NCBI GenBank assembly: GCA_963736855.1
Contig: CAVTQK010000006.1
Location: 1 to 64,000 of the forward strand
Length of the DNA stretch: 64,000 nt
DNA from: an uncultured delta proteobacterium
GTDB lineage: Bacteria; Desulfobacterota; Desulfobacteria; Desulfobacterales; UBA2156
Reading direction: 5' to 3'
Every line of letters begins with the position of its first letter. Position 1 is the first letter of the stretch. Positions 291 through 4,178 of the stretch are shown here, in pieces. The notes beneath the pieces are model-generated. The model saw only the letters and a list, made by a program, of their open reading frames with translations, did not search any database and had not been told where the DNA came from. The translations under genes and the position numbers were made by a program.

Positions 291-475
291 TTAAATAAAG
301 ATACCCGGTAACCCCCAGATCCGCGCCGCCTCCCGCTGCGTTAACCGATCTTCACTCCAACCAAAATACGTTCCCTCAAACTGCATCATTCGAGTCTCCT
401 GTAACCACTGTGTCCGCTTCATCAGTCCACCTCCTCGGTGACTTCATAACCCGGATAGTTTATTTGTTCTCTACA
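291..475 (-). mobile_element. Decayed left end of IS1202/ISNCY-like element, copy 1 (TGT terminus plus 43-aa truncated transposase N-terminus at 422-291)
   Basis: Minus strand starts TGTAGAGAACAAATAAACTATCCGGG; GGAGG RBS, then MKRTQWLQETRMMQFEGTYFGWSEDRLTQREAARIWG..., resembling the HTH start of ISNCY/IS1202 transposases; near-identical to ~4002-4178. Confidence 0.7.
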
Positions 476-650
476 ATTTAAAAATGTTCCACCCCCTCTA
501 TGGGGGACAGAAAGTTATTTTTCTCGATGTGAAAATTGAAAAAGGCCTTTTTGGCCTATTTTTTTGCAAATGGATTGAGAAAACGGACGTAAAAATTATC
601 AGATAAAAATATAATGAAAACAATTAATAACGGCTTTAAAAGATCTATAA

Positions 651-667
651 AGTTTACATAACATGTC
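651..667 (-). other. XerD-type half of a dif/xrs site (gacatg-TTATGTAAACT)
   Basis: TTATGTAAACT is the same 11-mer as the XerD/RipX arm of B. subtilis dif; no XerC arm is adjacent. Confidence 0.6.
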
Positions 668-696
668 CACTGCCCATGTCAGAAATTGAGCATTGT

Positions 697-915
697 TTAG
701 TCTGCTTCCATAACAGTGACACCAATCGGGAAATGGTCACTAAAACCATCCGGATCTATAGGCTTACCCATTCCGCCGAACGGGATGGGTGCTGGATACT
801 TGCCTGTGTGAACCATTTCCGGGAAGCGGATAATCTGAACCGCATCCTGCAAGACCTTGATTGGTGAATTTTCTTTCAACAGGTTTTTATTGGCGAGGAA
901 TTGGTCCAGAATATT
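697..915 (-). pseudogene. C-terminal fragment of endonuclease/exonuclease/phosphatase (EEP) family protein
   Basis: Frame reads NILDQFLANKNLL...GFSDHFPI; LDQ and SDHxP are terminal EEP motifs; N-terminal part absent. Confidence 0.7.
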
Positions 916-935
916 CGACTTGTTGTGCTATCTAA

Positions 936-1838
936 TCATTTGCTGTTGTTATATATGTCGATATCGGGATAGAGTTTTTTTGCACAATCCGGACAAATAC
1001 TATGGCTGAATTCAGCGTCTGAATGAACTTTAATATAGGATTCGATTTGAGTCCAGTAGCCAGTATCGTCACGAATTTTTTTGCATGATGCGCAAATAGG
1101 GAGTAAGCCGCTCAGAGTTTTTACTTTGCGTAGAGCACTTTTTAGCTCAACAATCAGATCATCTTTTTCGGTCTGAGCGCGTTTGCGTTCTTCCATTTCG
1201 ATTTTGATCTCTTCATGGGCTTTTTGAATTTCCTCCTTCTGTACCCGCAGGCGTCTCCTGATATTTGAGACAAATCCGCCGAAGAAGGCAAACCACGTCA
1301 GCAAAATGCCGAACAGAACGAAAAGGAATAGCTGGTATTGGATATTGAACCCCTGCCGATCCTGGAAGTACTCCAAGCCCAAGAGTGCTGCGTAAAGCCC
1401 CAACACGTACGCTACTACACTAAGATACTGTCGAAGCGTCAGGATCAGCATACCGAAGCTAAAGGGGGGCAGGTAAAACAGCAATATAATTGGACGTGCC
1501 TCTGGCAACCAATACATCGCCACAAATCCCCAAAAGGAGGCATAGATGATCTGTTCCCGAGTTAAAGATGGTTCTGAAAAGCGTAAATTTGCGTTTGTCC
1601 AAAATAGGACGAAGAACAAACTGACGCCAAACAGGCACAGCCCTATAAACGTTGCCCACTGCGCGCCGCTCAACTCACCAAGCCCAAGGAATGTGATCAG
1701 AACTGTCGCCAGGATCACAACTACATATGTGGCCACGGCGATGCCGAACCGCCGCAAACGCAGCCGCTGCATATGCTGAACAGCGTTGTTTGTCGACACG
1801 ATCTTCTCACTTGCTGCGTTGGACATTTTTGTAATCAT
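936..1838 (-). CDS. Multi-pass membrane sensor-like protein with coiled coil and C-terminal Cys-rich module (LLPICASCKKIRDD...FSHSICPDC)
   Basis: About 6 hydrophobic segments, charged coiled coil, CxxC...HxxCxxC tail. Confidence 0.8.
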   Translation of the reverse strand: MITKMSNAASEKIVSTNNAVQHMQRLRLRRFGIAVATYVVVILATVLITFLGLGELSGAQWATFIGLCLFGVSLFFVLFWTNANLRFSEPSLTREQIIYASFWGFVAMYWLPEARPIILLFYLPPFSFGMLILTLRQYLSVVAYVLGLYAALLGLEYFQDRQGFNIQYQLFLFVLFGILLTWFAFFGGFVSNIRRRLRVQKEEIQKAHEEIKIEMEERKRAQTEKDDLIVELKSALRKVKTLSGLLPICASCKKIRDDTGYWTQIESYIKVHSDAEFSHSICPDCAKKLYPDIDIYNNSK

Positions 1839-1891
1839 AGATTCTTCGATAGGCGTAGCGTTTGCCCGTCATAACAAATAAATACGGCATT

Positions 1892-1955
1892 TTAGAACCG
1901 CTGAGCTAACCGGGTGCCGCTTTTAAAGCGTCCGGTTGAAAGCGCCTTGTTCGGT
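1892..1955 (-). other. Integron attC-like site (~64 bp)
   Basis: Minus strand ACCGAAC-aaggcgctttcaaccggacgc...gcggcacccggttagctcagcg-GTTCTAA: imperfect palindrome with AAC/GTT ends just after the DUF2971 stop. Confidence 0.75.
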
Positions 1956-1972
1956 GCTCTGGTGCGTGTTCA

Positions 1973-2758
1973 CTATTCTATTCGTACTATGTCAAGGCCA
2001 AATTCTGCTGGTTTTGGACGTGCCTCAAAGAAACCCACCCGGCAATTTCCGTCTTTAACCCATTGTTTGACTGATGCTCGGACTTCGCCCGGTGTCATAC
2101 AGCCGAAAATGACTCCAGTCAAAAGCTCAACCGGATAACTGATGTTTTGGCTGGCCGTTTCAGGGCGAAAAATCCGATACTCCTTTTCATACGACCAGTG
2201 TCTGGACTTGGTGAGAATGACACGGGCCATCTGGCGTTCTTTGTCCTCATGTAAAGAAATCGGTGTGTGGTCCTCGTACTCGACCGGCTGAGCCTCACCG
2301 AAGAAAATGCAGTTACTTGAGCCGTCAAACTCAAGGCACAGCCCTTTGTGCTTGTCGGCGTAGTGTGCCCACATCAGGATGTCGTCTCTGACCTTCGAGA
2401 AGCAGACTATACCAGCTTTGTCCACGTCGCCCTGAACTCCTCGTCGTATTTCTTCGAGTGCATCGACGGACATCAGCTTGTCTATGAGGGCCGATTTCTC
2501 GGTCTCGCTCTTGGTGGGAAACTTGCGGTCGACGAACTCCTCGGCGAATCTCTTCAAGAAAGTGCCAGGTATTTGCAGAAGACTTGGGATGGCGCAGTCG
2601 AACGGGTCGTTAAAGGCTCGCCTGCTCGCAAAGAACAGCCTGTGTTCAACGAGAATCTGCCTCACCCACTCCATTCTCTCGTCATCGTCAGCAGGACATG
2701 AGAGATATTTGTAAAGAGGCATCGTTTCGAAGTGTGGTTCAGGCTCAGGTGTTAACAT
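1973..2758 (-). CDS. DUF2971-like protein (gene cassette)
   Basis: Motifs FNDPFD, CFS..LMWAHYADKHKGLCLEFD, KSRHWSYEKEYR; flanked by attC-like sites. Confidence 0.8.
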   Translation of the reverse strand: MLTPEPEPHFETMPLYKYLSCPADDDERMEWVRQILVEHRLFFASRRAFNDPFDCAIPSLLQIPGTFLKRFAEEFVDRKFPTKSETEKSALIDKLMSVDALEEIRRGVQGDVDKAGIVCFSKVRDDILMWAHYADKHKGLCLEFDGSSNCIFFGEAQPVEYEDHTPISLHEDKERQMARVILTKSRHWSYEKEYRIFRPETASQNISYPVELLTGVIFGCMTPGEVRASVKQWVKDGNCRVGFFEARPKPAEFGLDIVRIE

Positions 2759-2776
2759 TTTTCACTTTCTTTCTGT

Positions 2777-2900
2777 GCCGAACGCCGAATTGACCTGCAA
2801 CCGCAGGCGGCGCGGGGAAATGCGTTAGCGTTTTCCTTCCGCGACGACAAGGCGAAGCCCCGCCGCAGGCGGGGTTGTCTGGTCCAATGACATGTTCGCG
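2777..2900 (-). other. Integron attC-like site (~124 bp)
   Basis: Minus strand CGCGAAC-atgtcattggaccagacaacc...ggttgcaggtcaattcggc-GTTCGGC; DUF2971 ATG follows 18 nt after this end. Confidence 0.8.
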
Positions 2901-2908
2901 CCGCAGGC

Positions 2909-2947
2909 GCGCAACTGGCATTGGACCAGGTCAATTCGGCGTTCGCG
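2909..2947 (+). other. Minimal, oppositely oriented attC-like hairpin
   Basis: GCGCAAC-tggcattggacc-a-ggtcaattcggc-GTTCGCG: same arm sequences as the 2777-2900 site but no central variable region. Confidence 0.55.
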
Positions 2948-2965
2948 CCGCATCAGCGGCGCGAA

Positions 2966-2982
2966 CATATATTATTCAGACT
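2966..2982 (-). other. XerC-type half of a dif/xrs site plus 6-bp spacer (AGTCTGAATAA-TATATG)
   Basis: 11-bp arm ending ATAA plus AT-rich 6-bp spacer, followed by TTCGCG (cassette start) instead of a XerD arm. Confidence 0.55.
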
Positions 2983-3192
2983 CTTTTTTTATAGCATTCA
3001 ACCTCAATTTTGGAGTAGCTGGATCGTTTTATAGCGATCAAAAGGCCCCAGTATCTGAATAATTCTCTAACTGACTGTCAAGATTGCTGTTTTTTTAATT
3101 TGAGGTGTTTTTCCGACTTCTCGAAGATGATGTCACCGGCATTGAGAAAAGCGCTGATAAAGAGGATCTTTCCGATTCTTTATCGCCTAGCC

Positions 3193-3600
3193 TCACGGGC
3201 AGTTCACCGCTTCGGCATGGGTCCACAGGCTGAATGTCTGTCCCTTGGGACGGATCTTTATTTTTCCGGACATAGTCTTCCGCTCCTCAACAAAGACTGG
3301 ATCTCCGCCTTTTAAAATAAGAATGCGTCCTTCGGATTGGGCCATCAGCTTGGCAGCGGCTTCCGTATCCTTGTTTTCAATCATGGCAGAAACCTGATCC
3401 AGGAGCGTTTCGGTAAATGCGCCGAAGTGCCCTTTTTGGGTGATGCAGGGGCTGTCGGCATCCTGGGCCTGCGGCTTATGAGGCACCGCTTTTTGAGTGT
3501 CGAACAGAAATGATTTGATCCAGAAAAATATAGCCATGACGATGCCGATCAAAATCACGAATCCCTTGGCGATCTGTTCGGGGTTATATTTTACGGGCAT
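3193..3600 (-). CDS. Hypothetical membrane-anchored protein
   Basis: AAGGAG RBS before ATG at 3600; N-terminal TM segment; ORF track extends the frame to 3753. Confidence 0.6.
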   Translation of the reverse strand: MPVKYNPEQIAKGFVILIGIVMAIFFWIKSFLFDTQKAVPHKPQAQDADSPCITQKGHFGAFTETLLDQVSAMIENKDTEAAAKLMAQSEGRILILKGGDPVFVEERKTMSGKIKIRPKGQTFSLWTHAEAVNCP

Positions 3601-3825
3601 GGCGAGTCTCCTTTCGCCCCCTATATAATTAATCAGGTCGAAATGGGACGCGGTCAGCTCATCCAGGCCGGCCGTGGCCGGCAGGATCTGGATCGTGGGC
3701 TGGATGATGATTTCAGGCTGTTGAGAACCTTTAATCATCCCGGCCAATCGCATTAAACCATCGGGTACTTTTCTTTTCCCTTTTTCATACCTGTTATATG
3801 TCTATAAGGCAATACCCATATCCTG
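3601..3825 (-). pseudogene. Disrupted XRE-type HTH protein
   Basis: QDMGIAL*TYNRYEKGKRKVPDG with in-frame TAG at 3802-3804; 5' end replaced by the IS remnant. Confidence 0.5.
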
Positions 3826-4178
3826 ATGTTCCACTCCCCTCATAACGTTTACGATAGGTTTCCAAAACCTGCATCACTTTGTCCACCGGCGCCCGGCGAT
3901 GAGACACCAGGATCAGACGTTTGTCCCATAAACCCTCCATCACATCCTCTTCGTACCGGTGAATTTACCAACGCAAGACGTCCGCTCATAAACCCCAACA
4001 ACCGCGCCGCCTCCGCTGCGTTAACCGATCTTCACTCCAACCAAAATACGTTCCTCAAACTGCATCATCCGAGTCTCCTGTAACCACTGTGTCCGCTTAA
4101 TCAGTCCACCTCCTCGGTGACTTCATAAACCGGACAGTTTATGTGTTACAAACCCGGACAGTTTATTTATTCTCTACA
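3826..4178 (-). mobile_element. Decayed left end of IS1202/ISNCY-like element, copy 2 (frameshifted transposase 5' part)
   Basis: TGTAGAGAATAAATAAACTGTCCGGG terminus with tandem internal repeat ATAAACTGTCCGG; fragments KRTQWLQETRMMQFE and DKRL..VSHRRAPVDKVMQVLETYRKRYE; start codon mutated to ATT. Confidence 0.75.

Follow-up and report, generated by a model that had tools for sequence, protein, structure and literature searches.

The first 64,000 nucleotides of contig CAVTQK010000006.1 from an uncultured delta proteobacterium (Desulfobacterales, UBA2156; assembly GCA_963736855.1), the whole of which is referred to here as the window, carry on the minus strand, at positions 651-2982, a small array of integron-like cassettes. 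In our analysis, the site at the head of this array belongs to a family of attI-type docking sites that is present in several copies in the genome, and it is probably one of a set of integrase-less attI platforms served by an integron integrase (IntI) acting in trans. A first-pass annotation, which overlooked this multi-copy family, had interpreted the array as splitting a dif-like Xer recombination site (xrs) into two half-sites about 2.3 kb apart. The window is the start of contig C6 in a 3.9-Mb genome (labelled G000) of 25 contigs, and at this end the contig stops 650 nt past the proposed right half-site, an XerD-like arm.

A repeated attI-like site without an adjoining integrase gene

The left half-site lies on the minus strand where it had been placed, as an 11-mer at 2982-2972 followed by the spacer TATATG (2971-2966) and by TT (2965-2964), so that this orphan attI (2964..2982) comprises an 11-nt left arm, the spacer and a crossover G|TT between 2966 and 2965. 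It is one of seven copies in G000 of the motif TCTGnATnwTATATG|TT, for which 0.01 would be expected and a reversed control gave 0, and 15/19 positions are invariant across the seven. What follows TT is different in every case: seven copies lead into seven unlike sequences, with divergence starting directly after TT, and attC cassettes lie downstream of all seven (the attC at the C8 copy is truncated and was read by eye only). The copy on contig C13 sits between a frameshifted intI gene and the first cassette, the expected place of an attI. The other six, on C6 (the window), C8, C9, C14, C19 and C20, have no adjoining intI, and profile searches with TIGR02249 (matches over its cut-off being called intI) and PF00589 (recombinases) found no intI or recombinase fragment near any of them. 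Neither profile has a match on the whole of contig C6, in agreement with the first-pass statement that no integrase lies at the array's 5' side or in the window. The motif family thus has the marks of an integron attI, a G|TT crossover followed by variable cassettes and the same motif beside intI on C13, and the window locus itself, with no intI adjoining its attI, is not a complete integron.

The motif was also sought in 400 other genomes of the order and in metagenome and viral contigs. It occurs exactly in 10 of the genomes and heads cassettes in two, both of the same genus (G005 and G003, with a single copy each); the matches in the remaining eight, where there is no attC, are taken as chance, as are most of the 75 metagenome loci and 79 of the 80 viral loci scanned (101 were found). 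Four metagenome loci repeat the G005 module and two repeat the C8/C14 module with different downstream DNA. On the viral contig L144:4001-5000 the motif opens attC cassettes with antisense genes, with no intI within 5 kb.

Elsewhere in the genome there are four intI genes above the TIGR02249 cut-off (C13, C21, C22 and C24), and the frames of the last three are unbroken. Relatives of the genome's integrase are found mostly in Desulfobacterales and other environmental lineages. As the C22 IntI is 91% identical to that of C13 over 241 residues and the C13 copy carries the motif attI, the C22/C13 type appears to be the likeliest partner of the orphan sites. One branch of the first-pass proposal, that cassettes were loaded by an IntI in trans, is supported by the canonical form of the attC sites, by the presence of four intI genes on other contigs and by the recurrence of the left half at the C13 attI position. 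A layout of A/T arm, 6 nt and G|TT was seen by eye at ~10 other integrons of this IntI clade, among 64 upstream regions, and locus L258 has a near match to the motif, 150 nt from intI and 9/11 identical to the G003 left arm. In three same-genus genomes an intI gene lies directly upstream of xerD and co-oriented with it (G000:C24:200011-201931; L092, on G005:C243; L197, on G004:C28); the attI of this xerD-linked integron resembles dif in its CTGATAA arm, from which G|TT is one base farther away, and its CTG-to-TT distance of 11 nt is that of the motif family.

IntI1 inserts single-stranded attC sites at the G|TT of attI1, and bottom-strand exchange is lost when the C of the AAC triplet is changed to A (PMC4792948). 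At the sites described here, IntI, most likely of the C22/C13 type, would bind the left arm, cut at G|TT and insert attC cassettes in folded single-stranded form; replication would resolve the junction, as is known for IntI1, and every new insertion would shift older DNA further downstream. A module of ~100-400 nt, made up of a small open reading frame (ORF), an AT-rich stretch and the attI, would ride as a passenger on islands anchored at transfer RNA (tRNA) or transfer-messenger RNA (tmRNA) genes, and such travelling modules would give the cell several capture platforms for one shared integrase.

Cassettes of the window array

The interval had been said to hold attC hairpins and cassette-like genes; attC hairpins are indeed present, but there are two only, not one per gene. 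All features of the array are on the minus strand. Directly after the attI, a gene-less first cassette (2781..2965) folds into a perfect 11-bp hairpin (2941-2966) and a 163-nt composite attC (2781-2943). The latter scores weakly (E 2.8) in our attC model R1, which has 16 training sites and does not detect long attCs; a first attC heuristic had been too strict and a second was noisy. A near-identical gene-less cassette directly follows the attI of the complete integron L201, and gene-less first cassettes with a perfect short hairpin recur after attI at G000:C20:10116-10180, L085:9936-10000, L211 and L092:1140-1310, as well as at L201 and at 2781-2966 of the window. Next comes a DUF2971 gene (1973..2758; PF11185, E 1e-8), the unit of which (1960-2775) recurs in run X2, another sample, between different flanks. 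Its attC (1892..1955) is the last valid one of the array by fold and by R1 (34.5 bits, as a member of the R1 training set).

The remaining 1.2 kb of the interval is not cassette-like. It holds a membrane sensor-like gene with no attC (936..1838), a 3' fragment of an endonuclease/exonuclease/phosphatase gene, also with no attC (697..927; PF19580 positions 239-309, E 0.003), and, after the stop codon, an AAC...G segment (662..697) that is at best a collapsed attC and has neither an attC fold nor a model match. Homologues of the sensor gene occur in 39/281 genomes, and no attC below E 0.2 was found in 15 loci scanned (of 29 fetched); the homologues of the phosphatase fragment have an attC at 0/2 loci. 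For 470-960 there were just short low-complexity matches in 301 genomes.

Elsewhere in the genome, where there are at least 32 attC matches, further attC arrays have no motif at their head (G000:C9:665751-682116; C21:800534-807329; C19:45700-46600; C14:62900-66760). Pairs of ParE toxin-antitoxin genes are the first cassettes of the orphan arrays at C8:52200-52750 and C14:71790-72340, with an ArdC-like gene beside C14.

The XerD-like arm at the far end of the array

The proposed right half, TTATGTAAACT, is found as claimed at 661-651 on the minus strand, with ATG before it. This 11-mer reproduces the host XerD arm letter for letter and has TT after it (649..661); the right arms of the dif sites of G000 and of its closest relative, G005, have the same sequence. 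In the 3.9-Mb genome the 11-mer has just two exact occurrences, this one and the one in the genuine dif. The match is 11/11, or 13/13 with TT, its orientation and G|TT register are right, and ATG is common to both halves. By a Markov model, a G followed by the perfect arm is expected 5.9e-5 times in the 2,489 nt downstream of the junction, and the empirical genome rate per 2.5 kb of one strand is 0.0019 with at most one mismatch and 0.027 with at most two; as seven arrays were open to such a find, these figures have to be multiplied accordingly.

Joining the halves had been said to rebuild a clean 11-6-11 site. The layout and the right arm bear this out, but the left arm is shifted out of register by one base: compared with difs that have a TATATA spacer (a list filtered by spacer ending, with four rows of the underlying dif set dropped), the rebuilt site matches at 21/28 positions ungapped and at 25/27 with one base removed. 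Judged as an xrs, the locus has the XerD arm (11/11, yet 2.3 kb from the left half) and no in-register XerC arm. An empty allele with the intact 28-mer, which the first-pass annotation had proposed to look for, was sought by exact pattern in 185,579 genomes and in metagenome and viral collections, and none was found; exact patterns would miss variants. Four runs compared at 80% similarity showed no junction that bridges the array, although none spanned it and 632-775 was barely covered. Homology of the window to G005 stops at 4178, and G005 is without the whole island.

How, then, is the arm at 661-651 to be read? In the single likeliest reading, it belonged natively to a dif-like attI as its right half and was displaced; this is a plausible interpretation that falls short of being probable. 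A chance occurrence in AT-rich DNA is possible but not favoured, and the same can be said of an unrelated Xer-site relic; taken together, these two outweigh the displaced half. We lean slightly, for the right half only, toward the explanation that the arm has nothing to do with the attI, so that the array would end at the attC at 1892-1955 and the arm would be due to chance or to a separate Xer relic. As neither the sensor gene (0/15 loci) nor the phosphatase fragment (0/2) is a cassette elsewhere, it may be that no IntI insertion ever brought in the last 1.2 kb, and in the 43 nt ahead of the arm there is no attC fold (-3.6 kcal/mol) and no R1 match. After the 99 other attC junctions with an AAC core (from 106 attC matches, 74 of 84 in one set plus 32 of 34 in another), the best match to an XerD-like arm was 7/11, and junctions that are last in their array were no better by inspection. 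These points, with the content of the last 1.2 kb and the 0 exact matches to an intact rebuilt site in genomes, metagenome and viral contigs, weigh against a split site. Furthermore, G plus the exact arm occurs in 31/311 genomes and, among all but five of the matches, in no viewed context at an attC end. Stray Xer sites do occur, since G072 has a second one, intact, unoccupied and with a G-ending spacer, between glycosyltransferase-like and GGDEF-like genes (G072:C54; L601:3016-3043), apart from the likely true dif on its C67. What an unrelated arm does not readily explain is a 13/13 match that is correctly oriented, keeps the G|TT register and shares ATG, for which chance would account at 6e-5 to 2e-3 per array, nor that the left half resembles dif independently (25/27 with one gap).

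Several apparent parallels to the arm were rejected. A junction in G003 that is 14/17 identical to the right end of the window was considered as a second terminal arm, but cassette-like genes continue past it; XerD-like arms near attC in G224 and G197 lie in a gene 3' end on the opposite strand; and 17 copies in G070 have identical flanks (12 viewed) and therefore represent a repeat. The 109 viral matches of GCG plus an XerD-like arm showed no strong attC structure on folding.

On the side of a native right half stand the G-ending Xer site of G072, mentioned above, and six loci in an unrelated organism (L298, L325, L345, L355, L362 and L367), which have the same left half with an intact near-palindromic right arm, ~55 nt from a different attI; this arm matches the XerD arm at 7/11 in five loci and at 5/11 in one. 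There are at least five attI-like modules in this organism, in all of which a pair of palindromic cores precedes a crossover of another kind, and it is a second case of multi-copy orphan attI; at L345 the orphan attI adjoins the relic of an intI 5' end.

Upstream modules, island setting and possible loss of intI

The 100-400 nt upstream of the orphan sites fall into groups, C9/C19/C20 (75-83% identity), C8/C14 (75%) and the window with G005:C178 (72-78%), and at the place where intI would be, one small ORF is common to four orphans and another ORF to two. Such arrangements are also present in other samples (L316, L321 and L344). The window attI has, likewise on the minus strand, a conserved AT-rich stretch ahead of it (2983..3055), which aligns with the orphan attI module of G005:C178 at 78% identity across 94 nt. 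Before this stretch lies the decayed copy of a 46-codon ORF (3056..3176; 70% identical to C19 across 122 nt), whose other copies stand before the orphan attI at C9, C19, C20 and G005:C178; tblastn gave no match to this ORF at 3056..3176.

Five of the six orphans are in or beside tRNA/tmRNA-anchored islands, and three are at most 4.3 kb from an intact tRNA or tmRNA gene, a zone that makes up 7.7% of the genome. The C8 orphan lies between tmRNA and a 23-nt tmRNA 3' repeat, the C9 and C20 islands terminate at tRNA-Val, the C14 orphan has a 58-nt tRNA-Leu repeat at 11 kb and the C19 orphan a 19-nt tRNA-Ala piece 440 nt upstream; at G005:C178 there is a 47-nt tRNA-Val repeat upstream. Unlike these, the window copy is bracketed by two relics of a transposase-like element in direct orientation, both on the minus strand: one forms the left island border against a cooC-like gene (3824..4178; repeated in the genome, the C15 copy with a weak HTH_32 score), the other the right border (310..475; 94% over 159 nt to 3991-4147). 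The island also contains, on the same strand, a single-copy membrane-anchored ORF of no assigned family (3193..3753; no Pfam/NCBIfam match), and a resemblance to a C15 island gene noted by eye was unsupported on comparison. The spot beside the cooC-like gene is an insertion hotspot. In G005:C63 (L082:5130-6830) it is occupied, as judged by eye, by different mobile material, namely a small nuclease-like gene, repeated palindromes and a toxin-antitoxin-like pair. Past the XerD-like arm, window 487-557 contains two short inverted repeats, and 519-583 is found in run X3 with other flanks. A tRNA-Pro island (G000:C15:707724-711500) carries a 350-aa integrase and the orphan-module small ORF but no attI.

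It is rather unlikely, in our judgment, that every array goes back to a complete integron which lost its intI or was moved by insertion sequences, although this is a named origin of clusters of attC sites that lack an integron integrase, or CALINs (Cury et al., 2016; PMC4889954). The same motif does stand at the frameshifted C13 intI, transposase relics flank the window copy, and in the other organism mentioned above the intI 5' relic of L345 adjoins an orphan attI; in G003, a C13-type upstream stretch is interrupted by an insertion sequence. Against loss, there is no fragment of intI or of any recombinase near any of the six orphans, and the ORFs shared upstream by four and by two of them, found also at L316, L321 and L344, occupy the position of intI. 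The G003 interruption nevertheless counts against a platform served in trans, as do several other observations: the motif opens cassettes in just 2/400 other genomes sampled, the window array is small and decayed, its copy has no tRNA anchor within contig C6, and the module has no promoter consensus, with no sigma-70 match at 2983..3055. Moreover, both the activity of the orphan sites and the identity of their cognate IntI are what we infer from sequence.

The chromosomal dif and the Xer recombinases

The window site is not the chromosomal dif. A single intact dif with no insert is located at C21:396348, at the cumulative GC-skew peak and beside xseA, and it is kept beside xseA in five same-genus genomes, being identical in G005 and one base off in the right arm in the four others. 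The xerC and xerD genes are both on C24, and the second branch of the first-pass proposal had host XerCD acting on attC hairpins. A route like that of CTX-type elements, in which host XerCD would take folded attC hairpins into a genuine Xer site, is very improbable, even with both recombinase genes present, a right half that is the host XerD arm and the Xer-like ancestor discussed in the literature (PMC7790495, PMC4792948). The distance from the CTG of the left arm to TT is 11 nt in the motif family and 10 nt in dif; the left arm is one base off register, and its spacer ends in G, the base needed by IntI, whereas the spacer of xseA-linked difs ends in A in 24/24 cases (TT follows the arm in 20/24). 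On a Desulfobacterales dif left-arm matrix the arms of the motif family score -5 to -10 bits (window copy, -6.6), as against 5 to 18 bits for real dif left arms, which as training members were self-scored, and ATAA is kept in only 2/7 motif copies. In addition, no XerD arm is left at the junction after a first insertion, yet arrays grow, and IntI is available. Near 27 dif loci no attC was found below E 0.7. A one-off insertion at an ordinary secondary (attG) site can be set aside: IntI does insert at GWT sites genome-wide and may seed small CALINs in that way (10.1101/2022.09.11.507474), but 15/19 positions are invariant in seven copies and the motif is the attI at C13.

A more tentative idea, which we consider rather doubtful, is that the attI of this lineage is a domesticated dif. 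It would have arisen by two changes, an extra base within the XerC arm and the replacement of A by G as the last base of the spacer, and the XerD arm would have served as the first R box; copies would then have spread on islands as capture platforms free of an integrase, and the window array alone would still carry the displaced arm.

Relation to known systems

With at least two clustered attC (1892-1955 and the weakly scoring 2781-2943) and no nearby intI on C6, the window array has the features of a CALIN (PMC4889954), and it resembles others in its one-orientation attC cassettes, in having intI elsewhere and in an attI at its head, a CALIN with its own attI being known from the Shewanella prophage M16-3 (PMC9892861). 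It differs in that this genome has six orphan attI with a shared upstream module, mostly on tRNA/tmRNA islands, and in that the window attI is dif-like and its array ends in an exact host XerD arm. The attI1 layout is an L box, a 6-bp overlap and G|TT (PMC4792948); like a chromosomal integron attI, the window site has a G|TT crossover with change after TT, a 6-nt spacer and a counterpart beside the C13 intI, but it is without intI, a recognisable cassette promoter (Pc) or identified direct-repeat accessory sites.

Compared to dif (for arm conservation, see Kono et al., 2011; PMC3025954), the rebuilt site shares the 11-6-11 layout, a right arm that is the host XerD arm and a spacer one base from TATATA; unlike dif, its left arm is off register, ATAA is not conserved, the spacer ends in G, and it is away from the terminus and was never found intact. 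The integrative mobile elements exploiting Xer (IMEX), such as CTXphi (PMC7790495), likewise involve a folded single-stranded substrate and a Xer-like target. However, IMEX enter the real dif and keep it functional, whereas here dif is untouched and the substrates are attC cassettes; the window locus shows neither integration at the chromosomal dif nor its restoration. For attG, a geometry near that of dif-type cores has been described, and attI has been proposed to arise from a hotspot (Loot et al. preprint, 10.1101/2022.09.11.507474). As with attG, IntI would here act away from its gene, but attG are scattered GWT sites, and the site described here is conserved over 19 nt and present in several copies. 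An origin of IntI from Xer/IMEX has been discussed (PMC7790495, PMC4792948) and putative archaeal attIs have been described (10.1101/2022.02.06.479319). A literature search that left subscription journals largely uncovered returned neither a dif-derived attI nor multi-copy orphan attI modules.

CALINs are common, and origins have been proposed for them (PMC4889954). Because standard tools pattern-match only class 1-3 attI (PMC4889954), orphan arrays headed by an attI go uncounted. Six arrays with one docking site on islands suggest that some CALINs are working satellite platforms rather than wrecks. If the right half of the window site is native, there would be a two-change path from dif to attI that is testable and bears on the origin of integrons from Xer systems, and if the domesticated-dif reading is true, the window would preserve, as a fossil in sequence, the transition from Xer systems to integrons that has been proposed.

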